From positions 280,520 to 344,519 of the forward strand of contig NW_005201551.1 in the NCBI RefSeq assembly GCF_000372725.1: 64,000 nucleotides of DNA, written 5' to 3'. Source of the DNA: Emiliania huxleyi CCMP1516. Its lineage: Eukaryota. A program made the position numbers and the translations under genes. This document shows positions 456 through 39,764 of the stretch, piece after piece. Within the stretch, counting starts at the first letter, position 1, and the number at the start of each line of letters is the position of its first letter. The notes beneath the pieces are model-generated. The model searched no databases. It was not told where the DNA came from and saw only the letters and a list, made by a program, of their open reading frames with translations.

Positions 456-3400
456 AGGCCTCGCCACGCTCGCCCTCGCCCTCTCCATCGCGTGCGCGGG
501 CCTCCTCCACTTCTTCGGCCGCGCGATGCGACGGCGGCGCGGCCCTCGCTCTTCCGAGGCGCGGAGGCGGCGCAAGGCAAAAGCCTTGCTAGGAGATTGC
601 ACGAGATTGCACGAGATTGCACGAGATTGCATGATACAAAAGCCTTGCTTGGCGGCGACGGAGCCACCGTGCGTGGTTCTTTGCTAATGAGCTAGAGGTT
701 TGAGTGGCTCCTTAGGCTACTCGTCTGGTGGCGAAGGCGCGCCGCTGCGGCAGCAGTGACCCTCTGTGTGAACGGCGCCTCTTCACACCGCCAGCTGTGA
801 GCAGGTGTGTACCGCGTGCTGGCGGCGTCCTAATGAATCATTCCGTACTCTCATCATCGAGTAACAATTAATTAGGCGCACCGCGTGTTGGCGGCGGGCG
901 ACGCGGCTGCTGCTCCCCCGGCGGTGCCAGAGTGGCAGAGCGGTGTGGTTGCTATTGGCGCGTTGGCCGCGGGCGGCGGCGCCCCCCCCACTCTCGTCGG
1001 CACCGGGTTTGTGGTCTACCTTCCGCCGGCCGAGGAGGAGGTGGTTGCACGAGATTGCACGAGATTGCACCAGTCTGCGGCGAGATCGCACAAGATTGGA
1101 GCGAGATTGCACGGGATACGACGCGGGTAGTTTCTTCTTTTAGGCTGCGCGGACAGTCCCGGCGATGTGCAGTGGCGAGGGCGGCGGGGAGGGCGGCGGG
1201 GAGGGCGGCGCAGAGGGCGGCGGAAAAGGCGGCGGAAAAGGCGGCGGAAAGGGCGGCGGAAAGGGCGGCGTGGAGGCGGCGGGTTCGGTGGTGGTGGTGG
1301 CGGCGCATGCGGCTGAGGCTCCTGCGGTTGACGAGAGATGCGTGGAGGTGACCTGAGAGATTGCCCGAGATGATCCGAGGTTCTCCGAGATGATCCGAGA
1401 TTGCACGAGATGCTCCGAGATTCACAGGCAGGGTCGGGACGTGCAATCTCGTGCAATCTCGTGCAATCTCGTGCAATCTCGTGCAATCTCCTAGGCGGAC
1501 GCCATATGGGGAGATCTGGGGGAGGTATGGGGAGGTACGGGGAGATACGGGGAGATACGGGGAGATATTGGGAGATACGGGGAGGTATGGGGAGGTATGT
1601 GTGTCCTCTAGGCGGGCGCCGTGATCTCTACTTGCGCGCATGTGCTTGACGACATCCGGCAGCACGCCGCACACGCGCCGGCCGGCGCCGCCGCAGCGTC
1701 ACCGAGGCGAAGCACGCTTCTCGACCCATATGACCACGGCGAGCCTTACCCGAACCCGAACCCGAACCCGAACCCGAACCCTACCCCTACCCCTAACCCC
1801 AACCCTAACCCTAACCCCAACCCTACCCCTACCCCTACCCCCTAGTCCTATGCTTCTCGGCCCGTATGAACACGGCGTGGCGGTCCCACCGTCCACCCAC
1901 CGCCGACGACTCGGCTCGTACTCATCTGTCTCTGGCGCATCGATCACTCACCGCTCACGACTCGGCTCGTACTCATCTGTCTCTGGCGCATCGATCACTC
2001 ACCGCTCACGACTCGGCTCGTACTCATCTGTCTCTGGCGCATCGATCACTCACCGCTCACGACTCGGCTCGTACTCATCTGTCTCTGGCGCATCGATCAC
2101 TCACCGCTCACGACTCGGCTCGTACTCATCTGTCTCTGGCGCATCGATCAGGCGTGGCGATCCCGCATATCTCCCCATATCTCCCCATATCTCCCCCTAG
2201 GCGTGGCGATCGGCCTCGGTTCGCCCGCTGGGTGGCGGCTACAGGGGAGGAGAAAAAGAAATCGAGCTGGAGAGTTGTTTGTTTAGGTTCGCCCGTCGAG
2301 TGGCGCTGCAGAGGCGATGAGAAAAAAGAAACACCCGTACAGGATTTCTTTTTTAGGTTCGCCCGTTGAGTGGCGCTACGTGGCGGTGGTTCGGCGCGTG
2401 TCCCCCCCTCCTGCGCCGCGGGACGAGAGGAACGGGCTGGATTTGGTGCTGCTCGAAGTGGCGTTCCGACTCCCGCCCCCCTCCTCCTCCTCCACCTCCT
2501 CCTCCTCCACCTCCTCCTCGTCCACCGCCTCCTCCTCCTCCTCCTCGCCCGCCTCCTACGCCGCTTGGCGATCCCTCTACCCTCCTCCCCCTCCGCCGCC
2601 GCCGCCAAAGCGCTGCGGCAGATCGATCGATCTCGAGGCCTGTTGCGCGTCGCCGGCCCGCAGCAGCGGCAGCGAGGTGTCGGAGGCCGCGCTCCTTTCG
2701 CCGCGCCGCCTCGCCGCCCTTCCTCTGGGGAACGAGCTGCGGCTTCGGCTCGGAGACGACCTGGTGCGAACGAGATTGCGCGAGATTGGAATCTGAAGCT
2801 CCTCATCGAGTTAGTTAACGGACTGCCTTAATGCACTTGCCTTCGTGAGGTCCTTCTCGGCTACTCCAAGACCAGCCGCGCCCAGCGCCCCTCCGCAACA
2901 AACACGCGCGGCGTCTTTGCGGGCCGGCTCGACGACGAGCGCACAGGCGCCAGGCCGCGCACCGCTTCTGAGGAAGAAGAAGTGATAACCATATCTAACG
3001 CCGCGTCCTTTTTCTCAGGCGGGCCACTTCTGATGAGCGCTTTAGAAGAATAAGCTTCACCCCTCACGCCCTGATTCATCAGGCGCCTGGCTGCGCACGG
3101 ACGCGCTGATGCTCAGCGGCCACTCCGGCGGACCCCTCCTCAACTGCTTGGGCGAGGTGGTGGGGGGAGTCATCTGCAGTTAATTACTATCAGGCGGCCC
3201 TCTCCTCAACTGCTTGGGCGAGGTTGTGGGGTGGTCGGTGCGCTCTAACTTTGACCCGGTGGTCGCGGGTGCCGGCTACTACGCCGCCGGCCTGAACGAG
3301 GTTCGGCTCTGGCATGCCTCCGGGTTGCGCCCGAAGAAACAGAACTCACCTTTCTACTCCGGTCAATTTCTGTTTTAGGTGCGGCCGGTCTCGGGGCTGC

Positions 3401-4442
3401 GCGCAGAGCTGCTCGCGCTGCTTGGGCCGGAGGCGCCTAAAATCTCGGCTGATCTCGGCCAGTCTCTCGCTCCACTCGGCGCGTCTATCAGCTGCTGCTC
3501 GGCTAATCTCGACGACCCCGCCCCCTCCCCCCCCTCCCCCCCAAAAGGCTTTGGCGGCGGGCTGCAGCCGCTTGCCTGATGCTCGTTCGCTAACCGGCGC
3601 CGCAGCCGCCAGCAAGGCGAGATCGCACGAGATCGCACGAGATCGCACGAGATCGCACGAGATCACACGCGAGTGCACGAGATTGCACGAGATCGCACGA
3701 GATTGCACGAGGTGGCCCGACGCAGCCGAGACCATGCGATCGAGATTGGGCCTGGCTGCGACGATCGCCGCCCTCGAGACGGCGCTGTGGTGTGAACGGC
3801 GCCTCTTCACACCTCAGCTATGAATCAGGCGATGGCAGCGCTGGAGGCGGCGCTGGCCCTGCAGAGCGGGGGACCCCGCCCCCACCCCCCCTCCCCCTCC
3901 TCCCTCTCCTCCTCCTCGTCCTCCTCCTCCTCTTCCGAGGCGGACGAGGAGGACCCCGGCACGCCTCCGCACCACTCCCGCCGCCCCCGCCACTACCCGA
4001 CCACCGCCGCCGCCGCCGCCGCCGCCGCATCTCTCGGTGTCGTTGGCGGCGGCGGCGGCGCGGGCAGCGCAAAGAGCCTCCGCCCCCTCCGCCTCCCCCG
4101 CCGCCTCCCCCACCGCCTCCACGCCGCCTCCTCCTCCGCCGCCGCCTCTACCTCCGCCGCTTCCGCCACCGCCTCCTCCTCCGCCTCCCCCGCCTCCTCC
4201 GCCCCGCCATCAACGATCCGCTCCCCCCTCCGCCTCCTCTCCTCCCGCTCCCAGCACACTCCCCGCCCTCCTCCGCCGCCTCCTCCTCCTCCTCCTCCGC
4301 CTCCGCCTCCGCCGCCGCCGCCGCATCACCCTCCCCTTCCGCGTCCGCCGCCGCCGCCGCCGCCGCCGCCTCGCTTTGCCCTCCCCGCGGCCATCGCCCC
4401 AGCGGCAGCCGATGCGTCGGTGCCGCCAGGACGGAACAATAA
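456..4442 (+). CDS. Multi-exon trypsin-like (Trypsin_2/S1) serine protease with N-terminal hydrophobic segment; ends uncertain, may start upstream
   Basis: Exons give GVVAIG..VGTGFVV (~940-1020), CAHV (His, ~1640), GLDLVLL (Asp, ~2435), LPLG..LRLGDDL, VLLGY, and LRTDALMLSGHSGGPLLNCLGEVVG (Ser motif, 3085-3230). Confidence 0.8.
1748..1845 (+). repeat. Intronic telomere-like (CCCGAA)/(CCCTAA)/(CCCCTA) run
   Basis: Hexamer run ending in TAG; similar runs at 62711-62745 and 63031-63050. Confidence 0.85.
1907..2150 (+). repeat. 51-bp tandem repeat, about 5 units, intronic
   Basis: Unit CGACTCGGCTCGTACTCATCTGTCTCTGGCGCATCGATCACTCACCGCTCA; last unit ends at a CAG acceptor. Confidence 0.9.
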
Positions 4443-5201
4443 CCGTCCAAGTACTTCGCAGTTAGTTCATCAGCGCTCGTTGTTAATTAGGCGGGGCGGC
4501 GCAGCGGCCGGCTGTCTCGGGTTGCTCTGCTTGCGCGCGGCGCCGAGGCGTCCCACTTTGGAGGAGGGTCGGCAGACGAAGGGGAGGAGGAGAAGGAGGA
4601 GGAGGAGGAGACGGAAGGGCAGGGCACCTACCTGATCTGATCGCGGGCGACAGGTGAAGCGCTCGTAGAGCGACGCTGTCTGCTGTCCCATGCTATCCAG
4701 GGCTTATCGATGGCAAGGGAGAGCGAGAGCGAGAGGGCGGGCCGGGCGACCGCGCTCGCAATTCGTGTCGCATCGCGTGGCGGCACGCGTATGTTTATTT
4801 TGCGACAACTTTCTTGGTAAAGAGAGCTGTGTCGTGCACAGTCCCTGCTGTTCCCGCCCTGTCGCAACCCGTCGGTACCCCATCCACTCTCTACATCCTG
4901 AGGGGCGACCGCCACACTGGGGCGTGTTTCTTACGCTCGAGTCTCGACTCACGAACCGCCCTCCCCCGCGGCCTCGGCGCCTCGATGAAGGGGGCGCTAG
5001 CCTCCTTGGACTGCGTGTCCGACAGAACCCCCCACCCCCCCAAGCCCCATCCCCCATCCCGCCAAACCCGCGCGCGCCCCCACCGTCGCCTCTCGCTGTA
5101 CGTCATGCTTCGCAGCCGCAAGGGCTGTTGCTCTCTGTCATACTCGTGCGGCCATCCCGCCGGGCCCCGCGCCCTCGCCGCCCGGCCGGGGCTGGAGAGG
5201 C

Positions 5202-6625
5202 TCATTCGAGGTAGATACCGCGCTCCTCGCACACGGCCACCAGCTCAGGCTGCTTCTTGTTGTCCACCCAGAGCGTCTGCACGCGAGGGGATGTGCGATG
5301 AGCATTGGGTGGGGGAGGGGCGTGTGGCGAGGGGTGGCGTCTCGCGCCTTCAAGCTCGGGGCGGCCCCCTCCTTGAGGGCGGCGGCCAGCGCCTTGCAGC
5401 CCTCGTCGCCAAGCTTGTTTTCGCCGAGAGTGAGCTCCTCGAGCCGCGGCGCTGCCCCCTCCTTGCCGAGGGCGGCGGCAAGCGCCTTGCAGCCCTCGTC
5501 GCCAATCTGGTTGTCGTAGAGGTAGAGCTTCTCGAGCCGCGGCGCTGCCCCGCTCGCGAGGACCTCCGCCAGCTGCGCCGCCTCCGCGTCGCCCCAGCCG
5601 AGGTTGGCGTAGCTCAGCTTGGTCGCCTTGCCAAACTGCTCCTCGAAGGCGGCCTCGTACAGCTGCTTCACAAGCGGCTTGTCGTCCTTGCCGTTGGTGA
5701 AGCTCTTCGACTCCAGCTCCGCCGCGAACGCAGACGGCAGCAGCGGAGGGCGCCGGCCGCCGTCCTTTCTGCAGTCGTCGACGAGGCGGCCGCAGTCGTA
5801 CTCCGTGCCGGCGCGCATCTTGCCGAGGTCGAGCGAGAGGAAGCCAGCCTTTGTCAGGCCCGCCCAGCTCTGCTCGGTGAAGCACCAGCCACGGTCAAAG
5901 TACTTGGCCACGTTGGTGCCCTCGGCCTGCTCCTCCGCCTTGTGGCCGTCCGGGAAGGAGGTCAGCCGCAGCACGAAAGTGTACTTGTGGGAGTAGAGCG
6001 TGCCGAGGCAGCCCAGCCCCTGCTTGAAGAGCGCGTTCTGCTCCTCGGTGCGCAGGACGCCGTTGGCGGGGTCGGGGTGCTGGTGCAGCGAGCCGAAGTC
6101 CCAAAACACGCCGAGCCGCGGGATGAGGGGTTTGCCGAGCGAGGGATGGTCGCTGAGCAGGGCCTTGAGCGCCCTTGCGACGCGGGAGAGGTTGGCTCCG
6201 CGCGGGTCGGGGTGGTCCTTGGTCAGCCACGGGTAGGAGAGCGCGGCGACGGGAAGGCTGCCATACTCGGTGGTCGCCTCGACGAGGTCGGCGAGGGAGA
6301 GGAAGGCCTCTTTGGGCAGCGCCTGGCGGTGGGCGAGGACGCCGCCCGCCTCGGCGTGGCGGATGATCCACTGCGCGTCGAGGAGGGCGGCGGCGCCGCT
6401 CGTGAGGACCGGCTCTAGGTCGCCGCCGCCCCACTTGCGCCACCCCTCCAGCATCGTCTCGCTCACGCCGAGATCGGTGGCAGAGGCCAGGGCGGTGGCC
6501 GGCTCCGCTTCGGCATTGGCTGGGATGGGTCCCTCTGCCCGCTCTTCCTGGAGTCCGCTGCTGATGGTACTAGCAAGACCGGCAAGGTCGTCGTATTCCT
6601 GCGGCCTGCTCGCATGGCAGCCCAT
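5202..6625 (-). CDS. HET/TIR-like domain + RI-type LRR protein, copy 1 (about 450 aa, N-terminal MGC)
   Basis: Exon 6625-5348, GC-AG intron 5347-5277, exon 5276-5202. Motifs ALSYPW, VFWDFGSLHQ, LGTLYSH, YFDRGWCFTE; LRRs such as LEKLYLYDNQIGDEGCKALAAAL. Confidence 0.85.
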
Positions 6626-6866
6626 TCCGCAACGCCGATGTAGCACTGGGAGGCGAGGGCGTTTCCGGCGTACAATGTAACGGCTTCACGACGCGCCTCG
6701 GTTTCTTATGTTTCGTGTGTCTTTCGTGCTTTTTTATATTACCCAAAAGCTAGGCCCACAACGCCCTCGTGCTTTTTTTCTTGGTGAGGACGCTGCAGAA
6801 TTTCTTTTTCTTCATCACCTGCAGGCCGCGCCGCCGCCTGTCGCCGCTCGCCGCACTCCGCCACCG

Positions 6867-7555: not shown

Positions 7556-10500
7556 CACACGCACGCGCGCGCGCACGCACTCACGCACGCACGCGCGCGC
7601 GCACGCACTCACTCACTCACTCTCACGCTGCGCACGACTGGCTCGGGAGCCGGCACGAGGCACGCGGTGTGACGGGCCGCATCGCTGGGTCCCGGACTGC
7701 TGCACACAATAGTTCCGCTCACAAGGGAGATGTTGGGAGATGCGGGGAGATGTTGGGAGATGTGGGGAGATATGGGCCCCGGACGATGGCACACACAAGA
7801 GCTCACAAGGGAGATGTGGGGAGATGTGGGGAGATGTGGGGAGACATGGGTCCCTGACTGCTGGACACAATCGCTCACAAGGGGCAGCTCGCGAGGTGGA
7901 TGGACGGCGCTATAGCCAGGGCGCTACACAGAGGGCGAAGCTCGCGCGGGCGCCGCAGTCTTGCCTCGAGCCCCCCCCCTCCCCCCCCCCTTTTGGCCCC
8001 TGCAGGTACGTGGAGCTCGACCCGGAGCGCGTGTTTGAAGGCGGCCGCCTGATATGGGGAGATCTGGGGAGATCTGGGGAGATGGAGCTCGGCGGCCTCC
8101 GACCCCGCCACCTATTAGTCGTTAATTCTGAAGGTGGTCATTAGCTGATAAGCCACCTCCGCCGCCCCCTCCCTCTCCAGCCTTCAGCCCGCCCCTGCGC
8201 CGCCGCCGCCCATCCCTCCGCCGCCGCCGCCCGCCCCTCCGCCGCCGCCTCTCTCTCGCCGCCTCCTGCCTCCCCACCACTCCCCTCCCGCATCTAGAGA
8301 GTGCTGCGCAGCGCCGAGGTCTCATTCACTTCTGCCCGCTCGCGAGGTCTCGAACACACTTCTCTAGCACGTATATGACGCGCCTCAGCATGAGTTCTTT
8401 CTTTCGTTTGATCAACCGCTTGGACGGTGCCATGACTAGAGCCGATCGAGCTGACGAGTGTTTGGGGAGATGATGGGGAGATATGGGGAGATATGGGCGC
8501 AGCTGCGACCGAATGACGAGCGCTATCGACGGAGAGTTGGGCGCCATCAGTTCAGGCGCGGGTTCAACTACTTCCACCACGCAAATNNNNNNNNNNNNNN
8601 NNNNNNNNNNNNNNNNNNNNNNNNNNNNNNNNNNNNNNNNNNNNNNNNNNNNNNNNNNNNNNNNNNNNNNNNNNNNNNNNNNNNNNATATGGGGAGATGT
8701 GGGGAGATATGGGGAGATCCAGCTGACGAGCGTTTGGTTGGAGTCAGGCGGGCGGCACTTCATCTGGCTGCGCCACTCCTTCATCAAGTTCCCGCGCCGG
8801 CACGTCAAACTCGAGATCTCCCCCATATCTCCCCATGTCTCCCCATATCTCCCCATATCTCCCGCACCGGCACGTCAAACTCGAGATCTGCTCTCCGGCC
8901 TGATAAAAACAGGGGAGTGAGATTGTCGTCGCCCCGATGATTCTCAGGCTCGCCAACCTCGAGTTCACTGTGTCAACGCGGAATTAATTTTAATTAGCTT
9001 AGCTCGTGAATCTCAGGCTCGTCAACCTCGAGTTCACTGTGTCAACGCGTAATTAGTTTTAATTCGTTTAGCTCGTGAATCTCAGGCTCGTCAACCTCGA
9101 GTTCACTGTGTCAACGCGTAATTAATTTTAATTAGTTTAGCTCGTGAATCTCAGGCTCGTCAACCTCGAGTTCTCCTTTTTTAACGACGAGCCGATGAGT
9201 AAACTATTGAATTCACGGGCCTCAGGCTCGTCAACCTCGAGTTCTCCGATTTTGGGCGCGGCGAGTCGGACCAGGCCGCCGCCGCCGCCCTCGCCTCCGC
9301 CTCCCTCGCCACCGCCCCCTTCCCCGCCTCCGCCCTCGCCTCCGCCTCCTTCGCCTCCTCCTCCCTCGCCTCCTCCTCCCTCGCCGCCTCCGCCTTCGCC
9401 TCCTCCCTCGCCGCCGCCCCAGCCAGCCTTTCAACTCGTACAGACCAGGCGGGAGGCTCTCATCGCCCTGTTACCATTCTTACTTACTCTCGTGAGGCTG
9501 TGAAAGCACGCCCAACCTAGCGCACTTGCACCCGAAGGCAAGTGCGTCTGTTCACAGCTCACGAGAGTAATGCTTACTAGGCTCCCATCTCGGCGCGCAC
9601 CGGCCCCGACCCCGACGACAAGGAGTCGGGCGGCCAGCCGATCCGGCGCTCGAGACTAGCCGAGATCCGCCGAGATCCGCCGAGGGTAGCCGAGGGTAGC
9701 CGAGGGTAGCCGAGGGTCGCCGAGAGGTTCGTCGAGATTTGTCGAGATTGGGCGGCTGCCAGTTCGCGCAAGCTCAAAACGACAGCCAGCTCATACTTAC
9801 CCTGCCCACTCTTCTCTTTGCACCCAATGCCACGGAGGGGCCGCCAGCTTGCTGACAAGGGAGATGCGGGGAGATGTGGGGAGATATGGGGAGATATGGG
9901 CCCCGGACGATGGCACACACAAGAGCTCACCAGGGAGATGTGGGGAGATAGGGGAGATATAGATCCCGGACTGCTGGACACAATAGCTCACGAGGTTAGC
10001 TGATTCTCACCCAGGCTCTGCGTCGCCTTCCAGTACCAGATTGCGAGGCGCGACGTGCCTCGGATCTACCAGACGTTTGGCGCGCCGCACGCGGCTGTCG
10101 CACGAGGCTGCCCCGCTGTGAACGGCGTTTCTTCACGGGTGGACGGTGCCGAAACAGGCGCGTTGCATGAGGCTTCGTACCTGCGCTTCGCCCAGCAGGC
10201 CGTTGCGCCGAGCAGCTTGCGGGCGCGCCTCTGAGCGTGCATCGAGAGCGGGCAGTTTTTTCTGTGTTTCAGGCCATCACAAACGAGGCGCAGATGTTCA
10301 CTCCGCGCGCGTTTTGGACGGACCGCAAGAAGGTGGAGGGGCAGCTGCTGGGCAAGGTGGCATGTCGCCGAGACGCCGCCAGAGATGCCGCCGAGAGCGG
10401 GAGGAGGGCAGCCGTGCGCATCGGAGTGGGCGAGGAGACGCCGCCGAGCCGGCGGCTCGGCAGCTTCCTTTTCTGCAGCCAAGTGGAGCCGTCGTCTCGG

Positions 10501-11446
10501 TGGGGCGGCCTTTGACCCTCACTGCCGAGGTGCTTCCAGTTTGCCATGGAAGGAAGCTGTCGCTTCTCTCGCTGCGCCCCCGCGGTGGTCCACGACTCAC
10601 CAGACAAAAAGACCCCCGAGAGGCGTGGCAGTGTTTCGCCGGCCTGATCGGCCCTCTTTCCGCCTCTTTCCGGCAGGTCAACGAGACGCTGTACCGCCAA
10701 GGCTACGCCACTGTCCACGACCTGCAGCTGCTGCGCGTCGACTTCAACTCAAACTACGAGGAGAGCCCGCTGCAGCGGAGGGCTGCAAGGCAGCGCTGTG
10801 TGCAAGAGGAAATCACACAGCTGCGTGGTGTGAACAGGACACCATCACCAACATCCAGCTGCAGGAGCAGCTCAAGGTGCTCGAGAGGGGCGATGCCGGA
10901 GGCGGACTTCGCCGCCCGCTCCGTCTTCATTCACAGCCTCCGTTCACAGGTGACCAAGACGTACCAGCTCGAAGTGACGCGGGTGAGCAAAGAGGTCGAC
11001 ATCCTGTCGGCAGAGGCGGAGGCGGCCATCGCGCGCATCAACGCGCAGGCGCAGCGCGAGGCGAGCGTCACGATCAACCAGGCGAGCGCTTAATTATTAA
11101 TTAGCTGTTAATTATTAATTAAGGCGTCACGATCAACCAGGCGAGCCCAATTAATGGTTCATTGAGCGAGCCTAAGTAATTAAAGCGTCACGATCAACCA
11201 GGCGAGCGCGGCGGCGATTCAGATGGAGCAAGGCGCAAAGGCGACATGGTGCGCCGCCCGGGCTTGTGAGTACGCGGCGCTGCGACGACGGCGCGGTCAC
11301 AGCGCGCCGTCGCGAGCAGGTATGCCAAGCTCAAGGCGACGCTCGGCTGGAGCAACGACGACTTTTTGCGCTACGTCAAGATCAAGTCGCTCAACGCGCA
11401 GCCGGGCGGTTCAGTGGTCATCGGCGTGGACGCTGTCGGGGGGTGA
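6867..11446 (+). CDS. SPFH/Band-7 (prohibitin/stomatin-like) membrane protein, multi-exon, spans N gap
   Basis: N-terminal hydrophobic stretch, then SSWDVLEPTEWGVVQNGFTG, HFIWLRHSFIKFP, ARTG..GQP, SVAFQYQI, AITNEAQMFTPRAFWTDR, LQLLRVDF, Ala/Glu coiled coil and YVKIKSL..VVIGVDAVGG*. Confidence 0.8.
8587..8686. other. Assembly gap (100 N); others at 29476-29575, 32163-32262, 42149-42248
   Basis: Runs of N. Confidence 1.
8944..9245 (+). repeat. Acceptor + exon-start tandem array, about 69-bp period, 5 copies
   Basis: TCAG|GCTCGTCAACCTCGAGTTC repeated with AT-rich spacers inside the SPFH gene. Confidence 0.85.
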
Positions 11447-13377: not shown

Positions 13378-13440
<63 letters not shown>

Positions 13441-16400
13441 AAAGCAAGAGAAGGCGCGGCCGCCTCGCGGTCCGCCGCCAGCTGCGCGATTGAGAGCCGC
13501 TGGTACGCAGCGGCGGCGGCCAACCCGTCGCACAAAACGCGGACCACCTCGACAGGCGAGATGCCGGCGAGGTTAGCCGAGATACAGGCGAGATGCAGGC
13601 GAGATGTAGCCGAGATGCAGCCGAGATGCAGCCTGGATGTCGCCGAGATGTCGCCGAGATTAGCCGAGATGAGCCGAGATGCAGCCGGGGTGAACAGCCT
13701 TCACAGGGGCCCTCTCGCCGCGCACAACTTCTGAATAATAATATACTAATATTGTTACCTTGACCGGCGCCCTCTCGCCGCGCACAACCTCGCAGCGAAT
13801 CTCGGCGAATCTCCTCTCATCTCGGCGAATCTCAACCAAGAGTATTACCTTCACCGGCGCCCTCTCGCCGCGCACAACCTCGCAGCTAATCTCGGCGAAT
13901 CTCCTCTCATCTCGGCGAATCTCAACCAAGAGTATTACCTTCACCGGCGCCCTCTCGCCGCGCACAACCTCGCAGCGCAGCTTGGCGCTGCCGACGCTGG
14001 CGAGTGTCTCGCCCAAGTACTCGCAGAGCGGCTTGTTCGCCTGGCGGGAGATCGTGGGAGATCGTGGGAGATCGTGGGAGATTGTTCGCCTGGCGGGCAC
14101 TGTGTCCCCTCAGTCTCGAATCTCGCCTCAATCTCGCCTCAATCTCGTCTCAATCTCGTCTCAATCTCGCCTCAATCTCGCCTCAATCTCGCCTCAATCT
14201 CGTCTCAATCTCGTCTCAATCTCGCAGAGCGGCTTGTTCGCCTGGCGGGCTATTCACAGCTGCTATTCACAGCAGAGCGGCTTGTTCGCCTGGCGCAACG
14301 GCCGGGGCGATCTCCCACGATCTCCCACGATCTCCCACGATCTCCCACAGAGCGGCTTGTTCGCCTGGCGGGCACTGTGTACCCTCAGCCTCGTCTCTAC
14401 CCCGTCGCTACCTCGTCTGTATCTCGCCTGTATCTCGCCTGTATCTCGCCTGTATCTCGCCTGTATCTCGCCTGTATCTCGCCTGTATCTCGCCTGTATC
14501 TCGCCTGTATCTCGCCTGTATCTCGCCTGTATCTCGCCTGTATCTCGCCCCAATCTCGCCTCAATCTCGCCTCAATCTCGCCTCAATCTCGTCCCAATCT
14601 CGCCTCAATCTCGCCTCAATCTCGCCTCAATCTCGCCTCAATCTCGCCTCAATCTCGTCCCAATCTCATCTCAATCTCGCCCCAATCTCATCTCAATCTC
14701 GCCCCAATCTCGCCTCAATCTCGTCCCAATCTCATCTCAATCTCGCCCCAATCTCGTCCCAATCTCGCCTCAATCTCGTCTCAATCTCGCCTCAATCTCG
14801 CCTCAATCTCGTCCCAATCGCGCCCAAATACTCGCAAGTTCGCCTGGCGCAACGGCCGGGGCGATCTCCCACGATCTCCCACCATCTCGTATCCACCTCG
14901 CCTCAATCTCATCGCAATCTCGCTTCAATCTCGTCTCTACCTCGCCTCAATCTCATCGCAATCTCGCTTCAATCTCGCCTGTATCTCGCCTCAATCTGTG
15001 TCCTCTCATCTCAACTCTACCTCGTCTCTACCTCGTCTGTATCTCGTCCAAATCTCCGCGCGCCTCGGAGTCCTTTGCCTTGACCTCCATGCCAATCGAC
15101 CGCGCCGAGACGGCCTTCACCCTGGCAGTGGCAGTAATGGACAAGACTGACAAGATGGATACGAGCGGTGAGAATGACAAGATAAGAATCATAAACACTG
15201 CATGAAGCCGTCTCATTCTCGTTCTTGTCACCTCGTCTGCCGCGCGCTCGCCGAGCAGTAGCACTCCAGCGCCAGCTCCAGCCCCTGCGGCACCTGAGCC
15301 GAGATTGAGCGCCAGATTGAACCGAGATTGAGCCCAGATTGCGCCCAGATTGATCCCAGATTGAGTCCAGATCGAGCCGAGATCGAGCCGAGATTGAGCC
15401 CAGATTGAGCCCTCCTCCGCCCCCCAGCGGCGCACCTCTTTCACCGACGTGCAGCCGGCCGGCAGCGGCGGCGGCGGCGCGGCGGCGGCGGCGGCGGTGG
15501 CGGCAGCAGCGGCGGCGGCGGCTGGCGGCGGCGCCGCTGCTGCGGCGGCGGAGGAGGAGGAGGAGACGAAGTGTTCGGACTTGGCTTTCTTTTTCGGCAC
15601 GAGGTGCGGCGCCTGTTGGCGCGTTACGGAGCTGCTCAGGCGTGGGCAACGGTGCATTGAGCGCGCACTGGTTGAAGGTGCGGAGCGCTCTCTCTCCCTC
15701 TCGCTCTCCCTCCCTCCCTCCCTCCCCCTCCTACCCGCTCCCGCCCCTCCTACCCCCAAGCTGGCGAGTAGAGACCACCCCTGCTATTCACAGCTGCGAT
15801 TCACAGCACACGCCCCTTGCCTGGCGGCCTCGGCATGTGCAGCGGAAGGCAACGGATCACCCCGTGTGTGAAAAAGTGAGGCGTGGTCTCTACTCGCCAG
15901 CCCCCCAAGCCCCCGTTCTCGGCTCCATCCCGAGAACACCTCGTCGGCGCCCTCCTCCTCGTCCTCCCCCCCAAACGACAGCGCCCCTTGCGCCACCTTC
16001 TTCTTCTTCTTCTTTTTTGGCGCCTACGGGACATGTCTCGGACATGTCCTGAAAGTGCTCCGCACGTCTTCCTCTTCTTCTTCTTCCTTTTTGTACCGGC
16101 GCCTCTGCAGCCGCCACCTCGCCTCCGCCGCCGCCGCCGCCACCGCCACCGCCGTCGCCGCCGCCGCCGTCGCCGCCTCCCCCCCCGCCGCCGCTCTCCA
16201 GCTCCTGGCGCCGCCTCGCGAACTCCGCGGCGCTGACGAGCCCGACGGTCGCTTTGGCGAGCTGTCCCTCGACGCCGTTGGTGGAGGAGGAGAACTTGTC
16301 GTCGACGCCGCCGAGGCGGTACGCCTGCCGAGGCGGCGCGGTGGGTGCGTGCCTTGGCGCGGGCCTTTGGCTGCCCACGGCTCGCAGCGCGCAAGGTGGC

Positions 16401-16612
16401 TGCTCTCAGTGCTCTCAGGGTGCGCGGTCGCCCGGCGCCGCGGGGTGCAACCGCTGCGGCCGCTGGTGCCGGCGCGCCTTTGTCTCCTCCGCCAGCCGCT
16501 CGCGCTCGGCGCGCGCCTCGTCCAGCGCGTCCTTGCGCGCGCGCTCGCCCGCCGCTGCGCGGAGCGCGTCCGCGCCCGCGTTGCCGTGCCCGCGGTGCGC
16601 CGTCTGAGCCAT
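12870..16612 (-). CDS. XAP5/FAM50-like N-terminus followed by DUF167 (YggU/UPF0235)-like domain; 3' end uncertain
   Basis: ATG 16612 MAQTAHRG..; [29 protein letters not shown] and [16 protein letters not shown] resemble FAM50/XAP5. [47 protein letters not shown] resembles DUF167. Confidence 0.6.
14110..15050. repeat. Large intronic 10-11 bp satellite block (CTCGCCTCAAT / CTCGCCTGTAT / CTCCCACGAT)
   Basis: Directly visible tandem 11-mers; explains the spurious [13 protein letters not shown]s. Confidence 0.95.
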
Positions 16613-17160: not shown

Positions 17161-17322
17161 AGTGGATTTTATTTGATTGTTTGCTGTCATCACTGGCGCC
17201 TCTGTGTGGAGTGAGGTGGTGGATAGGGTGGGCGCTCGCAGCCGTGGCGAGTGTCGCCCTCGCCGTGCGTCACGTGAGGATGGGTCGAGGAAGGCCACCG
17301 CGCACGTCGGCCCCACGACACA

Positions 17323-17545
17323 GTGACCGGCGGGGGCCTCGAGAGCATAGAGGGGGCGATGGAGCAAATCCGGGAACTAAAGGAGGGGGGAGGCGCACCG
17401 ATCCGCAACACGGGACGGGAGGCAACAAAGAAGTTGGTGGAGATCATCAGATACATCAAGGAGGGAGGGGTGTGGCTCGCCACGCTGGCGGACACGCACC
17501 TCGGGGAGGAAGAAATGCGCGAAGTGATAGAATTCTACGAAACAA
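17323..17545 (+). mobile_element. Fragment resembling the start of a LINE AP-endonuclease domain
   Basis: NTGREATKKLVEIIRYIKEGGVWLATLADTHL resembles the N.RG..K..EI...I..LQETHL pattern; purine-rich and intronless. Confidence 0.45.
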
Positions 17546-17607
17546 GCCCCTCTCACAGCAGACTGGCACGAACTAGCACCACAAAAGGCACAGCAGACAA
17601 CGGCCCC

Positions 17608-19552
17608 TTATGGGCCGTCGAAGAGGCCGTCATACTCCTCCGGCCTCGCCCCCCCTTCCCAACCCTCCCCTGGCTCAGGCTCCTCATCCTCGCGGCGCGC
17701 AGTGCGCACCCCGCCCCGCGAAGACGAACCCTTCCGCCGGCGTGCCTCGCGGGACTGCCGCCCGCTGCCGCCGCCCTTCCCCCCCTCCGCTGCCCGCGCC
17801 GCCTTCTCCGCCGCCCGCGCGGCCGCCTTCGCCTCCTCCGCCGCTAACAGCGCCTCCCTCCGCGTGACCCCTATGGGCCCCTTGCGCATCCAGGAGAGGT
17901 CGCGCGAGCGACCTATCCAGGGGTTACTCGGATACGGCGCAACGTAGCCGCTGCGCAGCTCCGAGTAGTCGCCGAAGCCCCCCCCCAAATAGCCCTCCAG
18001 GCAAGCATCGCAGACCCACTCGCCTAGCTGAGAGATCTCAGAACTCTCGCCGCGCCAGATCTCCTTCTCCGCCGCCTCCATCTCCTCTCTCGACCAGCCC
18101 CCCAGCTCCGACCAGCCCTCACGCAACGCCCGGCGCCACAGCCACGGCTCCACGCCAAACTCGTCGTAAAAGCTCCCAAAGCACTGCTGACACTCGAGGC
18201 CTGGGCCTCGAGCGTCCGCCGCGGAAAGCTCGAGTGTGGGCGATGGCGCGAGCTGGGCCATGTACTGATTGCGTGTGACTGTTTCTGCCGTCTTTGAGGG
18301 GGCGTGGGCGTAGGAGTGGCGCTCTGCTACCCTTGCAGCCGAGCGCCTTCTCTCAGCTCCATTGCCTCTAGGGGGTTGTGGCCGTGGATTTGGCCCCCTA
18401 GCCCCCCTCTCCGAGAGCAGGCCTGTCCAGACTAGCGGAGTGTGGTGGCGTGTGTTTGTCGTGGCTCGCCTTGTGGTGGGAAGGTCGGGTGTCAGTGTGA
18501 GTGGGGTCGGTGGGACCTCATTCCTCGTCGCTTGCGCCATCGTGGCGGTGCCATTTGCTTTTGGCGGCCTCTGCTGAGCCGGGCGTGCCGGCGGCGGCCC
18601 GCTTTGCTGCTGAAGCAGGGCCCTTGCTCGGGACCGGAGTCGATGGCGCCTCGAGGTCCGACGATGGTACGCCTCGAGCCGCGCGCTCGGCGCGTGCCGC
18701 GCGCGCCGCAGCCATGCGCTGGGCGAGGTTGCTCTTCGGAGGCGACGCAGGCGCCACTCCCGAGCCGTCGTGCACGTAGAGGCAGCCAGAGCCGTTCGCG
18801 CATTTGGCGCCTGGGTCGAGCTCGAGCAGCGCTTCCGTCGCCGGCCCGAAGGCGCAGTTCGGGTACGGCATGCTGTGGACGCGGGCGCATCGGGGGGCGT
18901 CCAGCGAGGCGTTGGGGCATCGGCCCGCGAGGTGGTAGGGGCAGTCCCCTGCTCCAAGGGCCAGAGCGGACGGGATCACCCTCGCCTTTTTGGGTGGGCG
19001 AGAGCTGGGGTTGCGCTGCGGCTTGCAGCGGCCGCCTCCTCCTGCCAGGCAGAGACGGGCCTCTTTGTCTGAGGCGAGGCCTGCTGGCGGCGCGAGGTAG
19101 CCCTTGCAGCGGTGGCAGATCTTCTGTCCCGCCTCCCCCAGCACCTTGTAGCGGTGGTACCGCCCGCCGATGATGAGGAAGTCGGGCCAGGACGCTATCG
19201 CCGTGGTCTCGAAGTTGGCGAACCAGTTCGACCCATTACCGAGAGTAGGGACGAAGGTGATCTTGCCACTGCGTGGGTCCGTCTCTGCGCGTTTGAGCGA
19301 GTCCCGGGTGGGAGCGCGCACCACGTGCAGGCCGATGCTTTTGAGCGCGTCGGAGATGTTGTTGGCGTTGAGCAGGCGGGCCTGCTCAATGGTCTCTGAG
19401 AAGATGATCAGAGGTGTGGTCGGGGTCCGGACCTGGGCCGTCCTGGCATGCGCGACTCCGAATTCTCTGGCCGGCGGCCTCTCGACCAGCTCCACCGAGA
19501 GGGAGGTGCTCTTGATCACCGGCGGGTTGCCCTCGGCGGGGCCCTTGACTTG
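17608..19552 (-). mobile_element. Retroelement-like remnant: ORF1/gag-like ORF (19552-18518) with CxxC and two CCCH-like fingers, then a CxxC..CxxC ORF (18262-17608)
   Basis: Intronless; ICHRCKG, CPYHLAGRC..CARVH, CANGSGCLYVH; then CQQC..WVCDAC. No RT visible. Confidence 0.5.
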
Positions 19553-20147
19553 CACGTCACGCGATTTTTTGCAAAAATCTGGCGATATCTGTTCGGTATC
19601 TCGTGATATCTGTTTGTATCTCCCTGTACCTCCATATCTCGCTGTATCCCCGCATATCCCTGCAGTGGATACAAGCAAAAAATCCGGCCAGTGGAGGGGT
19701 GCTGTGAAGTTGAACCTTGAAGCGACGTGCCGCCATGCCCAAACATTTGGGCGCGGCACACGTGACCGCGCCAGCACACAGGACACATCGTTCATCGACA
19801 TGCAGCGCTACTGTACCTCCAGTCTCAGAACTCATCGCAGACTGGATAGCACTTTCCCAGTCACGAGTCCCATACTTCCCATCACTTGTACTCGGTGTGT
19901 GGTCTTCCGTCTTGCAGGCGCTCCGCGACTCGCGACTTGCGAGGAAGCGCCGCCCCCCGGGGTCTCGTCTCTCCGAACGGCGAACCTCTCGTCGGTCGTC
20001 GCTCGTGCAGGCCGTGCTATTTCGATCCCAGCGAGATCTCGCCTCACTCCCATCCTGTCGAACGCCCTCTCCATGCTTCTCTCCATGCTTCTCTCGCTGG
20101 ACGCTGCGATTCGAGGCCCTCCCGTCCCTCTCGCGCCCCCGTCTCTC

Positions 20148-22501: not shown

Positions 22502-25241
22502 ATGCGAGCTGCCTTCGCCTCAGCGTCGCCGCGCTCGCTCGCGGCCTCGGCGCTGCGCCGCACCGCGCCGCTGCACACCGAGGCCCGCATCAAGTGAGCT
22601 GCGCCCGCCCACACGGCCGTGCGAGCGCCCAACCACGTCGGAGGACGTGTGCATAGCGGCCAGCGCCGCCGGCGCTCTGCCACTGTCCCATGCCTGAGTC
22701 GCAGCCCTCCGCGCCAGCCGCAGACCTTAGACCCGTGCGGCACAGCGAGCGTGAGTGGATCGAGAGAGCGGCGTGCCACTGCTGGCCGCCGACGGCGCTG
22801 CTGACTGCCAATCGCGCCACGCCCCGCCGCAGGGAGCTCGGCCTGACTCTGCCGGCGGCGGGGACACCAAAGGCGAACTACACCATCGCCTGCTGGGAGA
22901 GCCCCACGCGCCTCTACCTCTCCGGACATCTTCCGATCAAGTGAGCATCCGAGACGCCTCCGAGACGCTTCCGAGACGCTTCCGAGACGCTTCCGAGACG
23001 CTTCCGAGATGCTGCCGAGATCCTACCTTTCCCGCCTCGCACTTCGAGACACCTCCGAGACACGTCCGAGACGCTTCCGAGATGCTTCCGCGACACTGAT
23101 GCCGCTTCTTGAGACAGTGCCGGAGTGTGTGCACCTTGAATGGCGAGGCCGGATGGATAATCATCTGATTAATTAGTTGAGGAACGAATTAATTAGTTTA
23201 AACACAAATTGTTCGTGGGCAGGCCGGACGGCAGCATGGCGACGGTTAATCATTAATTCGTTAATTAATCAAAGAAAAGAAACTGTTCATGCGCAGGCCG
23301 GACGGCAGCATGGCGACGGGCACTGTCGGCGGCGAGGGCGGTCTATCGCTGGAGGAGGCGCAGGAGGCGGCAAAGTGGTGGGAGGGAGCCGAGAGATCGC
23401 CGAGAGATGGCCGGGAGATGGCCGAGAGATGGCCGGGAGATCGCCGGGAGATCGCCGGGAGATCGCCGGGAGATCGCCGGGAGATCCGCCGAGATGTCGC
23501 CGAGGTGTCGCCGAGGCAAGATCTCGGCTGATCTCGGCTAGATCTCGGCGAGATCTCGGGAGATCTCGACAGGTGCGGGCTCGGTCTGCTCGCCACGATC
23601 CAGGACCAGCCGCAGCCGAGATGCCGCCGAGATGTGTCGGAGATGCCGCGAGATGCCGCAGGGATGCAGCCGAGACGCCGCCGAGGGCTGGATCTCGGCT
23701 GACCTCGGCTGACCTCGGCTGAATCTCGGCTGAATCTCGGCTGAATCTCGGCTGACTTCGGCTGATCTCGGACGATCTCGGCTGGCCTCGGCTGATCTCG
23801 ATCTCGGACGATCTCGGCTGAATCTCGGTTGTGTATCTCGCTGCCAGGACCAGCTGGGCGGCGACCTCGACCGCGTGGAGCAGGCGAGATCTCAGTTAGA
23901 TCTGGAGCATATCTCGGGCAGATCTCAATCTCTCTCGACCAGATCTCGGCAGATCTCGGGCAGATCTCAGTCATATCTCGACCGCGTGGAGGAGGCGAGA
24001 TCTCAGTTAGATCTCAATTCGATCTCGGGCGGATCTCAATTCATTTTGATCCGATCTCGGGCAGATCTCAACTCGATCTCGGGAAGATCTCGGCTGCATC
24101 GGCGAGAGACCGCTTGTTGAAACACGTTGTTGAAAGAAGTGGTTCGCTGTCATAGGTCGTGAACCTGTTTGGCATCGTCGCGAGATATGGTTGAGATCGA
24201 GATCCGATCGAGATTGCCCGCAATAGGTCGTGAAGCTGTTCGGCATCGTCGCGAGATATGGTTGAGATCGAGATCCGATCGAGATTGCCCGCAATAGGTC
24301 GTGAAGCTGTTCGGCATCGTCGCGAGATATGGTTGAGATCGAGATCCGATCGAGATTGCCCGCAATAGGTCGTGAAGCTGTTCGGCATCGTCGCGTCCGC
24401 GCCCGAGTTCAAACAGCAGCACCTCGTGTTGAATGGCGCGAGAGAGAGGGGAGATCTCGCCGAGATCGTCGCCGAGATCTCCCCGAGATCTCCGCCGAGA
24501 TTCTCGCCGAGATCCAGCCGAGATCAAGCGGACACATGCCGCTGAGGTGCAGCCGAGGTGCAGCCGAGATCTAGCCGAGATCTCACCGGGTCCAATCTCG
24601 GCGAATCTCGGCGAATCTCGGCGAATCTCGGCGAATCTTGGCTGAGGGTAATCTCTAGCCGAGAGGCGATGAGGCTGCAGCAGAGAGGCGTTGCCGCGAT
24701 TTCGCGATCTCGATCTCGATCTCGATCTCGATCTCGCGCGATCTCGGCCGTAGGCTGCTCTGACGTGATGATGGCGGTGCTTGGCGGGAAGAGAGGCTAC
24801 CACGCTCGCTCCGCCATCGGCGAGATCTAGCCGAGATACAGCCAAGAAAAGAAAAGAATGTAGCACGCTCGCTCCGCCATCGGCGAGATCTAGCCGAGAT
24901 ACAGCCGAGATACAGCTGAGATCGAGTCACCGCGCACGTAGCAGTGTTGCGTGACTCTGCTTTCTGGCTGTGAATTAATTCGTTGTTAATTAGTTGTTAA
25001 TTAGTTAATTACTTTGCGGGGCACTGCTCTTCTCGCGGATGGCTATCACGCTGACTGCGGCGTCGTGGGCGGCTGGACAGACGGCGCAGAGATGCCCCGT
25101 GCACGAAGAGATCCCCTTGATCCGACGACTGAGTTCGTTTTCTTTCATACCTGCGGTGTCGTGGTGTACGCAGGCACCAACACGCTGCCGCTCGACTCGC
25201 CGGTGGAGGTGGAGGCGATCATCACCGTCAAGCCCGCCTGA
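22502..25241 (+). CDS. RidA/YjgF/YER057c/UK114-family protein with mitochondrial-type presequence
   Basis: MRAAFASASPRSLAASALRR..LHTEARIK / ELGLTLPAAGTPKANY..LYLSGHLP / LSLEEAQEAAK / LGGDLDRV / VVKLFGIVAS..QHLVLNG / CSDVM..HARSAIG / TNTLPLDSPVEVEAII. Confidence 0.92.
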
Positions 25242-25414
25242 CTCGACTACGGCTTTACGCGAGAGTGCCGAGGGATTGGCCGAGTGCCGAGAGAGACCTG
25301 TCTCCGGCAATACAGTATCCGTCTACCCCGTCAAGCTGACGCGTGGGGGGGCGTGCGCTCCCGCCTCCTCGGTTGTTGGAGGTGAAATGTGAGCTAACCA
25401 CCAAACCAGAGGGT

Positions 25415-25492
25415 CGGGTAAGGTAAGGTAAGGTAAACTTCTCCACACACTCGAGGTGGTGGGGCAAGGGGGGGCGACCCTCGCGTCTCCAC
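25415..25492 (-). mobile_element. Non-LTR element 3' end with (CCTTA)n tail; related copy at 13235-13300
   Basis: Reverse complement GGTCGCCC..CTTGCCCCACC..GTGTGTGGAGAAGT followed by TTACCTTACCTTACC. Confidence 0.6.
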
Positions 25493-25551
25493 GTCTAACG
25501 ACAGGAGCCCCACGGCATTTAAAGTGCAAGGCCCGGTGCGCGTGGGTGAGC

Positions 25552-26328
<777 letters not shown>

Positions 26329-27073: not shown

Positions 27074-28841
27074 CTAGCGTTCTTTGCGAATGTCTCGAGG
27101 TGGCCAGCAGGCGCTGTCTGCTCGCGGCCTGTGCGGGTCGCTCGTCCTCCTCGCGCTTCTTTCGTCCTCCCGTCCCTCCCCTCCACCATGGCCTCCTCGG
27201 CACTTCTTTCTCCATCCGCCTCGCCCTGCCTTTTCGTATCGTGCCGTTCGCCCTCCATTCGGTGACCTCCATGGCTGTCCGACTCTGTTTGGGTGGCGCT
27301 CTCGATACCGTTGCGTCAACCTCGACGTCGCTGTCGCCCTCCCCGTCCCCGTCGTCGCCCGTGCCTCGGTTCGCGTCATTGGTAGCGTTTCCGTTGCCCC
27401 CTCGTGTTCCGCCGTCGCCCTCTCTGCTCTGGCCGTTCGCGATTTTGAGGGTCGGGGGGCGAGACCGACACGCACCGTGTCGACGAAGATCGTCCCGAGG
27501 TGGTTCAGCTTGATCTGTGGGATGCCCTTGGGGTTGGTGTTGAAGGCGTCCACAAAGGCGTTCTTCTGGAGCTGCATGCGGTGGTGGGTGTTGGGAGTGT
27601 GGTGAGTTGAGAGGGTAGAGGGGGGGGGGGGGTAGCGCAGAAAAAGAAACCTCGTTGTGGAAGCCGAAGTAGGTCTTCGTCCTGTCGAGCTGGACGCCGT
27701 TGCGGTAGGCCATCGCGATGCCGTAGTGCTCGCAGAGGACGTACAGCCCCTTATTCAGGGACTCGCTCACGGACTGGTAGGTCTCGCCTTGGCCTGGGGC
27801 GGAGACGCGCTCGAAGTAGATCAGCGTCCCCTCCTCCGAGGATTTCGACTGGTCCATGGCCCATTTGACGGCGGGGGCGCACCTTGCCCGGATCTGCGGG
27901 AGGATCTCGACCATGAGCTTGGCGCCGCAGCCCGTCGTGATCATCTTGGAGGGCTTTGCGATGGCGATGGGGTCCTGCGCGTGGATTTGGTACGTTGTGA
28001 GTAGGGGATGGGTTCGGCCACTTGTGGGTATGGTGTGATTCGGCTTTTTGTGGGTGTGGCGGATTGAGAGTCTTAGTAGGTGGAGGGTATGGGCGTTCCT
28101 GTTTGACGCCGCCGCGGTCGACGTGGATCTCGCAGTAGTACGTCTGGGAGGAAAGCTGCAGGGCCTCGCCTCCGAACGCCTTGATCACGTTCTTGCGCAG
28201 GTTGGCGATCCCGAGCGAGCAGCCGCGCGGCACCTTGAACTGGCTCACGAGCGCGTTGTGGACCTCGCCCTCGTCGATGGACCCGAGAAGGGCGCCCGGC
28301 TGGGGTGGGGCGGACAGGCGAAGGTGGAGGTCGTAGGGGTCGGGCTTGTTTCGGTCGATCTTGACGGGGACCGAGTCGTCCACGGCGTCGTCGACGTCGG
28401 CGACCGAGAAGACGATCGTGCCGCCGTCCGGGATGTCGTTGGGGTCCCCTGCGGGAAGGGGGGCGGGGAGGGGGGGGGGGAGAGAGGGGGGGTGAGGAGA
28501 GAAGAAAAGAAACCGAAGGGCAAGTGGTTTGGCTGTCCGCCTCCCAGGAACTTCTCGACGAAGTAGGAGTTGATCGTCGTCGTGGCCCCGATGGTGGCGA
28601 TGGAGGAGGCCATGGACTCAAACGTAAATCCGTCCGGGAGGTCGCCGAGAAGGTAGAAAGTGGAGTTCCTGCCATGCTGCAGCATGAGCTTGTGCTCGAA
28701 CTCGTCGTGGCCCGCCTCGATGAACATCGCGGAGACGATCGTGGCGACGTGCTCGGCGTTGATGCCGTTGCCGGTCTTCATCACCAGCATCTTCTCCTTG
28801 AAGGGCGTGTCGGGGACGTCGAGATTCATGTCCTGACACAT
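27074..28841 (-). CDS. Orphan multi-exon protein with short simple introns, possibly TE- or virus-borne; 3' end uncertain
   Basis: Frames join via introns 28540-28449, ~28100-27975 and 27650-27572 (..VEKFLG|GDPND.., ..FHNE|LQKN..); balanced amino-acid composition and high GC3. Confidence 0.7.
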
Positions 28842-29575
28842 GCAGGGTGGAAACTATATGAGTTGCCAGGAGTGAGGTTTGTAGGAGAGCCGCGTGGCGC
28901 GGCGGTTCGGGGCTCGGTTTTGGGTGGATGGGCCTGGGTTCGAATCGGGCTCGCGGAGCGTCGCGGGCGCGTGGGTGCGTGGTGCGTGTGCAGTGCAGCG
29001 AGCGAGCGAGCGAGAGAGAGAGAGAGAGAGCAGGGCTTCTCTCTTTTGTCTCGCCGCGGCTGTTTCCTCTACCGCGTGTCGGTCGTCATCTCGGGGTCTG
29101 TTTGGTGAGGGCATTGGCGGGCGTCGGAGTGTAGGTGGGCTCTGGTGGAGCTGTGTATTTGGTCTGTGCACAGGCGCTTTTTGTCGTGTGCGCGGCACGC
29201 GTGCACTGCGGGCGCGCGCGCCTTGAAGATGCCCGTCGGATAGCCGACGCCGGCCGTCTCGTCGGTGCGGGAGCGCTTCGGCGAGGTTGGTTCGCTGCGC
29301 GACATTGGGAAGGTGCCCGAAGGCAGGGTCCAGGGAGGTTTAGTCCGCCTCGCGGAGCGAGACTTAGAGAAAACCTCGGAGATGTGAATTTAACATATAT
29401 TTTCCATAGACACCACGTACGCTCGAGTCTCGAAGCTCACGACTGCCCTCCCCCGCAGCCTCGGCGCCTCAGTCGNNNNNNNNNNNNNNNNNNNNNNNNN
29501 NNNNNNNNNNNNNNNNNNNNNNNNNNNNNNNNNNNNNNNNNNNNNNNNNNNNNNNNNNNNNNNNNNNNNNNNNNN

Positions 29576-31390: not shown

Positions 31391-31691
31391 GAGATCCCCT
31401 TGATCCGACGACTGAGTTCGTTTTCTTTCATACCTGCGGTGTCGTGGTGTACGCAGGCACCAACACGCTGCCGCTCGACTCGCCGGTGGAGGTGGAGGCG
31501 ATCATCACCGTCAAGCCCGCCTGACTCGACGACGGGGCTACGGCTTTACGCGAGAGTGCCGAGGGATTGGCCGAGGGCCGAGAGAGACCTGTCTCCGGCA
31601 ATACAGTATCCGTCTACCCCGTCAAGCCGACGCGTGGGGGGGCGTGCGCTCCCGCCTCCTCGGTTGTTGGAGGTGAAATGTGAGCTAACCA
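31391..31691 (+). pseudogene. Duplicated last-intron end, last exon and 3' flank of the RidA-like gene
   Basis: Near-identical to 25108-25400 (TNTLPLDSPVEVEAIITVKPA*). Confidence 0.9.

Positions 31692-39648: not shown

Positions 39649-39682
<34 letters not shown>

Positions 39683-39707: not shown

Positions 39708-39764
<57 letters not shown>

Follow-up and report, generated by a model that had tools for sequence, protein, structure and literature searches.

The source of most new introns is described as unknown (PMC4202315, PMC3443670). In Daphnia pulex, neointrons were traced to the repair of staggered double-strand breaks, and exon-intron repeats of 4–12 bp were found in 33 cases among 90 neointrons (PMC4202315). 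A cross-taxon survey of 213 introns reported direct repeats of 4–30 bp (mean 11.4 bp) near intron borders, which were read as scars of break repair (PMC11782384). Introners are sequence families with TSDs of 3–9 bp and often TIRs, in which the donor or the acceptor comes from the duplicated target and the length of the mRNA is kept (PMC9860276). Tandem genomic duplication at AGGT derives splice sites from the duplicated exon, in a model that has no filler (PMC3443670). For Emiliania huxleyi, published work describes intron positions without detectable conservation with other eukaryotes (PMC3174169), 56–65% GC donors with a few GA donors (PMC4028052), many non-canonical introns (PMC11347168) and, in a figure legend that cites the species as an example, dual-modal intron lengths (PMC6157073).

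The introns of the window (the whole stretch of 64,000 nt of E. huxleyi DNA analysed here) have features of several of these systems. Like the Daphnia neointrons, they are polymorphic and AT-rich, carry a direct repeat of exon ends, and young introns are enlarged by repeated events. Unlike the 4–12 bp repeats of Daphnia (PMC4202315), the copies in E. huxleyi are 8–38 nt long, come mostly with GC donors and form modules of about 70 nt; they also appear in standing introns at high density. These sequences are best read as Daphnia-type intron gain in a variant with long repeats. The use of a duplicated target for donor or acceptor with unchanged mRNA length is shared with Introners, whereas the AT-rich fillers found here form no family; Emiliania is not mentioned in the main text of PMC9860276. 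Splice sites from a duplicated exon recall the tandem duplication model, whereas here unrelated filler is the rule and is often the source of the AG. The position of the repeats near intron borders resembles that in the cross-taxon survey, whose abstract reports neither a lineage with long in-register copies nor allele evidence (PMC11782384), both of which are present here. A full-text literature search did not find the copy-plus-filler design described in E. huxleyi, although the genome paper or its supplement (10.1038/nature12221) may already do so. The exon-copy feature is real and statistically strong, and it was confirmed once at the level of alleles.

This confirmation comes from a GC-AG intron of 66 nt (3128–3193) that interrupts a trypsin-like domain in its serine motif region; all modelled genes and their introns lie on the + strand. 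The gene (2203–4425) was modelled as a partial, stop-free spliced ORF with seven introns, supported by six RNA joints, and its match to Pfam Trypsin_2 (E=1.9e-5) had 25.9 bits, under the curated cut-off of 27.6. A 39-nt repeat at 3127–3165 comes back at 3193–3231, and the filler in between ends in AG. A preliminary description of this DNA was thus right that an exon start recurs after such a filler; it had counted two substitutions between the copies, and we found three, at 3132, 3135 and 3159 versus 3198, 3201 and 3225, all of them synonymous. Copy 1 (3128–3165, 38 nt) is now the 5′ part of the intron and the source of its GC donor. The filler (3166–3193, 28 nt, 61% AT) has no homology to the flanking exon and ends in the CAG acceptor, and copy 2 (3194–3231) is the start of the exon. 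The insert puts an in-frame TAA, the only stop of this intron, inside the trypsin-like domain; without the insert the frame is open.

Exactly 66 nt were skipped at this site in contigs of four out of four sequencing runs from three studies. These runs are RNA by guess only, the comparison was confined to contigs, and some sites differ from the window, so that alleles lacking the insert could likewise account for the skip. In three of the four runs the joint can be placed at GC..AG (3128–3193), and these carry the second-copy letters at 3198 and 3201; the fourth run skips 66 nt too and has first-copy letters as far as 3159. The filler was covered by none of the contigs listed for the four runs. 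Five GT-AG or GC-AG segments in the neighbourhood of 3128–3193 are skipped by the same contigs too. The preliminary description had named inclusion of the copies as exons in RNA as the outcome that would speak against it, and the opposite was seen at this site in these RNA-type contigs. Taken together, this supports the view that the segments behave as spliceosomal introns.

A scan of metagenome contigs for the same locus yielded one locus, L001, which is genomic since neighbouring introns are still present in it. L001 is without exactly the 66 nt of the insert and has an empty, unduplicated site (one site, one contig). It agrees with copy 1 at 38/38 positions, with copy 2 at 35/38 (the three synonymous differences) and with the flanking exons at 263/265. 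At the donor of the preceding GC-AG intron (2947–3082), which contains a decayed exon-start copy and is supported by RNA-type contigs, L001 has an extra module of 67 nt that is missing from the window; in it, the end of the upstream exon is duplicated and followed by a filler of 10-bp repeats. L001 lacks the insert at 3128 yet has its own extra module, and copy-plus-filler modules therefore vary between close relatives in both directions. These data support a presence/absence polymorphism between close relatives at one site, 3128–3193, in an alga that is available in culture and for which several studies offer public sequence data.

L001 may represent the ancestral or a reverted allele, as its sequence is compatible with both gain and loss. 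Gain would need an error-prone second copy, and loss by deletion between the repeats would yield the same L001 sequence. Copy 2 differs from L001 at 3/38 positions and the flanking exons at only 2/265, so L001 may be a revertant. In other introns, the first copy agrees with the RNA of three runs and with two distant homologues, P0001 and P0002 (at 39442), or likewise with the homologue (at 36909). The first bases of the second copy therefore seem to be the derived ones, a trace expected of imperfect re-priming, which we take as a hint for gain. At 37081, 37523, 40305 and 40807 it is the copy in the exon that agrees with the homologue, the one in the intron having decayed. The absence of one intron from the gene of a close relative suggests that introns are still being made or lost here, likely via DNA repair.

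In five single-module introns the copy was 92–100% identical to the flanking exon and the filler 18–36%, which bears out the local duplication with filler that had been proposed for this DNA. The edge between filler and copy is sharp, and the filler resembles its own exon no more closely than it does other exons. No template for the filler was found within 150 nt in any of the five single-module introns. Comparison of 27 AT-rich 3′ ends in the window revealed no family homology over shuffles (best score 26; shuffled maxima with a median of 23 and a 95th percentile of 27), and AT-rich fillers match reverse complements equally well. One similar pair of fillers, sharing 40 of 67 columns, was found in a guanylate-binding-protein-like (GBP) gene. 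Other filler types consist of 10-bp repeats or of CCCTAA-type repeats, the latter presumably telomere-like. Capture of telomeric repeats at breaks has been reported for mammals (PMC7215372). The CCCTAA-type repeats occur as intron filler at 1716–1877 (between direct repeats), 62700–62764 and 63030–63056. The 10-bp repeat pattern gave no matches in viral contigs, and Rfam gave none at gathering scores.

What we observed is an exon copy next to filler of unrelated sequence, a segment skipped in RNA-type contigs, its presence or absence in different alleles, and a match between donor and exon start; on this basis we consider it on balance probable that introns and intron segments in this region arose by repair-type duplication plus filler and were kept where they could be spliced. 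A staggered break or stalled fork would be repaired in such a way that a stretch of flank (10–40 nt) is re-copied and 25–60 nt of filler, TAATTA-rich or made of 10-bp or CCCTAA-type repeats, are added. An exonic G|GC or G|GT of the first copy would turn into the donor, and either the filler or the copy would contribute the AG of the acceptor, so that the length of the mRNA would be unchanged. The insert would presumably survive only where a splice site allows its clean removal. If the spliceosome tolerates GC and GA donors, such rescue would be common, and the GC majority might be due to this. Repeated events and tandem amplification at one junction would stack modules of about 70 nt, and the flanking repeats would permit exact reversion by deletion. 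The repair mechanism is read from scars, as neither a repair enzyme nor a break was observed.

To see how far the feature extends, we counted copies in 64 introns modelled in five stop-free spliced ORFs, with all counts taken from this window; genes at 44950–51050 (glycosyltransferase; an exon search gave two distant proteins), 13430–16600 and 61900–64000 are outside this set. The supported set comprises 28 introns of two genes, of which at least 19 lie under RNA joints and 9 were placed by contig ends and P0001, and the predicted set comprises 36 introns placed by frame continuity only. The intron start was a copy of the start of the next exon (score of at least 8) in 18/64 introns, at a null of about 0.0002 of mismatched pairs. 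Such anchored copies were present in 14/28 supported versus 4/36 predicted introns, and the other 46 of the 64 were without an anchored long copy. The mirror match of intron end and upstream exon end (score of at least 5) was seen in 6/64 at a null of 0.0097. When copies of a flanking exon at 13/16 were allowed anywhere in the intron, 26/64 introns contained one versus 24 of 3,604 control pairs; in about 40% of the modelled introns the source can be read off the sequence. Internal exon-start copies are preceded by AG in 13 of 14 cases. The comparison of intron 5′ ends with downstream exons against controls, which had been put forward as a check, came out clearly in the window: none of 20,000 permutations retaining the splice consensus reached the observed similarity, so that the excess is not produced by this consensus. 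An annotation-free scan for a GC-rich repeat with AT-rich filler found 17 clusters versus none in each of eight block shuffles. Exon copies thus extend beyond the loci of the preliminary description. The general intron recipe proposed there overstated a single geometry, since the junction can lie at the left edge of the repeat, inside it or at its right edge, and since many modules do no more than enlarge existing introns. Differences between copies are distributed 7/7/9 over the codon positions, as expected of neutral decay, and 7/23 are synonymous. The three out of three synonymous differences at 3128 had raised the idea that both copies are kept under protein selection, which was rejected on this overall ratio (p=0.43 versus random). 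Where exon copies are in register, splice calls and read alignments in the E. huxleyi genome will be displaced.

The same design had been claimed at five further loci. Repeats are present at all five, and at most of them the design differs; among the six noted loci, those at 3128 and 37245–37313 are stand-alone introns of the kind described. The loci at 11064, 23224, 56608 and 56808 are known from gene models, and their introns are predicted. At 11064–11205, the simplest intron (11082–11201, 120 nt, three repeat copies) draws both splice sites from CAG|GC inside the repeat, in a stop-free model of a gene that we take to be SPFH-like. Homologues hold one copy of the segment repeated here and agree around the 11082 junction. 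P0125, a gene call with 98% identity (protein only), reads through the 11082 donor into residues unlike those of the window, hinting at a different filler at this junction in another allele. At 23224, 56608 and 56808 an AG stands before the first copy as well, which is internal to a larger predicted intron. The GT-AG intron 22941–23296, in a stop-free model of what is presumably a RidA/YjgF-like gene, contains a 74-nt module that duplicates the acceptor and the exon start (23210–23245). In a gene assumed to be START-like, also modelled without stops, the copy at 56608 lies with its preceding AG inside intron 56138–56685, and the copy at 56808 is the internal one of the two-module GC-AG intron 56737–56882 (146 nt). 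A PDB search with one RidA-like exon gave a single weak match (E=0.006). Near-identical copies of the last RidA-like exon, its acceptor and the downstream DNA were found at 25102–25690 and 31390–31690.

The GBP gene (35932–42151; Pfam GBP, homologue P0001) has 21 introns, at least 13 of them under RNA joints, and a stop-free spliced ORF of about 710 aa. It contains the noted repeat 37283–37340, which belongs to a GC-AG intron of 69 nt (37245–37313, RNA joint) with an exact 26-nt exon-start copy and AT filler. The GC-AG intron 36753–36822 (70 nt; RNA-type contigs, model) is built in the same way from a 19-nt exon-start copy, and a GC-AG segment of 83 nt lies at 39442–39524 (RNA joint 39446>39530; P0001/P0002). 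The mirror design is represented by two modules at 37715–37871, where a copy of the upstream exon end gives the acceptor; the RNA keeps the first copy, and the homologue agrees. Intron 40305–40762 (458 nt) is a tandem stack of modules of about 76 nt, and the GT-AG intron 41417–41688 (272 nt; RNA-type contigs, model) is a stack of four of about 68 nt. Micro-exons of 18, 12 and 24 nt (37227–37244, 37872–37883 and 41393–41416) lie between modular introns and are supported by the letters between RNA joints. Over the intronic region 41017–41140, which is without an Rfam match, contig depth added up to very high values in each of the four runs; a related 28-nt piece is found at 55228–55255. This region may be an abundant repeat or a small RNA.

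Among the 64 introns we counted 39 GC, 21 GT and 4 GA donors, a GC share near the published 56–65% (PMC4028052). In 52/64 introns (35 GC, 15 GT, 2 GA) the exon that follows begins with the same two bases as the donor, and the association for GC and GT was significant in Fisher tests (p=4e-4 in the supported set, p=8e-9 in all introns). We know of no splicing rule that couples the donor and the start of the next exon intron by intron. As duplication would couple them, GC donors look exon-derived, in line with the earlier proposal that duplication could explain their frequency. Many introns without a long copy also have this match, which suggests that they have the same origin and are older. Point mutation makes GC donors too: a donor that reads GT in the window reads GC in L001. 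The agreement of donor and exon start would give the GC-AG majority of E. huxleyi a mechanistic cause; this majority has been put down to the GC content of the genome in a paper that, in the text seen, mentions neither exon copies nor a match of donor and exon start (PMC4028052). The agreement could also link two published oddities of the species, the two-peaked intron lengths (PMC6157073) and the lack of conserved intron positions (PMC3174169). The GA donor at 36374 lies under an RNA joint and those at 23604, 10761 and 56138 are predicted; two of the latter three face an exon beginning with GA.

The preliminary description had also noted fillers dense in TAA, TGA and TAG and had suggested that stops in all frames send retained introns to NMD. 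TAA was indeed above shuffles (191 versus 128–164; TTA 249); TGA (238; TCA 273) corresponded to the dinucleotide expectation of 228, and TAG was depleted (130 versus 148–183). Stops were even over the frames (182/192/176 in 63 introns, p=0.93), and all three frames carried stops in 43/63 introns, as AT-rich words would give. Intron lengths were divisible by three in 22/64 cases, and in-frame stops were about equally common in introns of this kind (20/22) and in the others (35/41). Stops selected for NMD are thus unsupported, because there is neither a frame bias nor a sense-strand excess of TAA and TGA, which are no commoner than TTA and TCA. Two introns divisible by three are without an in-frame stop, 39272–39346, which is spliced in all four runs, and 10080–10157. 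The word bias of the introns is strand-symmetric (TAATTA 34 versus 2.4 expected; TATA 9 versus 33). Plain branch-point selection was also considered as the cause of the TAA and TGA richness and found weak, as the opposite strand has the motif just as often: YTRAY was present at −50 to −8 in 32/64 introns versus 21 for its reverse complement, with totals of 178 versus 172.

Module size and placement are what untargeted repair explains least well. Lags between repeats were 59–76 nt in 15 of the 17 clusters of the annotation-free scan, the extra module of L001 has 67 nt, and modules also pile up inside older introns. Intron lengths cluster at 66–86 nt (14 introns) and 134–150 nt (10), roughly the size of one and of two modules, and only two are 87–133 nt long versus 13–17 expected from smooth fits, with bins chosen after looking; the lengths did not follow a strict period of 70 nt, the best fit being 59 (p about 0.01). 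Intron-bearing gene bodies (34,688 nt) contained 35 non-periodic repeat clusters and the remaining DNA (28,912 nt) 3, TAATTA occurred 37 times versus once, and 19 of 24 repeat clusters in the five modelled genes pair directly with exon sequence. All this, together with the recurring filler types and their shared word bias, would fit a dedicated gene-directed process that places modules of about 70 nt on splice junctions or next to them and duplicates the target, coupled to transcription or splicing, or carried out in trans by a machinery related to reverse transcriptase or telomerase. Selection for spliceability together with a minimum intron size can yield much of the same pattern, however. 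The outlines of the gene bodies were set by eye and in part on the basis of these very features, so that the contrast in placement is partly circular, and the DNA outside is largely transposon-like or made up of recent intronless paralogues. We regard such a process as unlikely. Its modules would consist of a 10–40-nt target copy and newly made TAATTA-rich or repeat filler, and internal AG|GC sites could be spliced recursively. That E. huxleyi builds introns at junctions to this day without a transposon family, in quantised modules of about 70 nt, with stacking and repeat-mediated loss, is a tentative idea that we hold doubtful; if true, a junction-directed process alone would account for the majority of GC donors, the two-peaked lengths and the lack of shared intron positions.

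The fillers could also be decayed mobile elements of the Introner type, of which a TSD donated a splice site, the same logic by which Introners co-opt one; a family has been reported from Chrysochromulina (PMC9860276). Intron 37884–38069 belongs to a dispersed family of five copies, and the pair of GBP-gene fillers mentioned above shows some similarity. However, the five-copy family intron has no long duplication, the duplications of 8–38 nt are variable and exceed the 3–9 bp of Introners (PMC9860276), and near-identical copies flank unrelated fillers, the 27 AT-rich ones being without homology above shuffles, which leaves this origin with little probability. Plain tandem duplication of an exon segment of 60–80 nt with AG|GY, the middle of which later decays to AT-rich sequence, is an established model known as the Rogers model (PMC3443670). 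It would suit junctions that lie inside the repeat at CAG|GC (11082, 38097) and intron 39272–39346, which grades off without a sharp edge, and stacks of whole modules clearly amplify in this way. For the first events it is largely refuted by the sharp edge between copy and filler in all five single-module cases, and as a general explanation we consider it very improbable. Finally, the skips might be strain differences or assembly artefacts instead of splicing, considering that the runs are RNA by guess, are available as contigs only and stem from other strains, and that L001 and one run carry first-copy letters. Against this, the contigs skip each G(T/C/A)-AG segment in turn, even those present as DNA in L001, three runs have the second-copy letters at 3198 and 3201, some other contigs of the RNA-type runs span fillers as retained introns, and removal of the introns gives stop-free ORFs that match homologues. 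We give this explanation hardly any credit, and duplication plus filler during repair, followed by splicing, is the reading that we prefer.

Several other elements were noted in the window. The dispersed family of about 170–190 nt has five copies on the + strand inside genes (37884–38069, 46025–46198, 62520–62700, 63290–63460 and 63680–63840) with a mean column identity of 66%; one copy is an entire GT-AG intron. The family has no Rfam match and is possibly Introner- or SINE-like. A short repeat with inverted TGTGAA..TTCACA arms is found near intron 3′ ends of several genes (766–800, 3784–3825, 10114–10136 and 49355–50021). Coding stretches at 17300–19600 and 27400–28900 look transposon-like or gag-like by eye. 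An intronless family of LRR-containing genes is present in four copies on the minus strand (5138–6646, 29576–30660, 33700–35040 and 43050–43900), which contain no copy-plus-filler introns and have many paralogues in E. huxleyi. The intronless gene at 5300–6625 is 97% identical along its length to EMIHUDRAFT_114844 of E. huxleyi CCMP1516.
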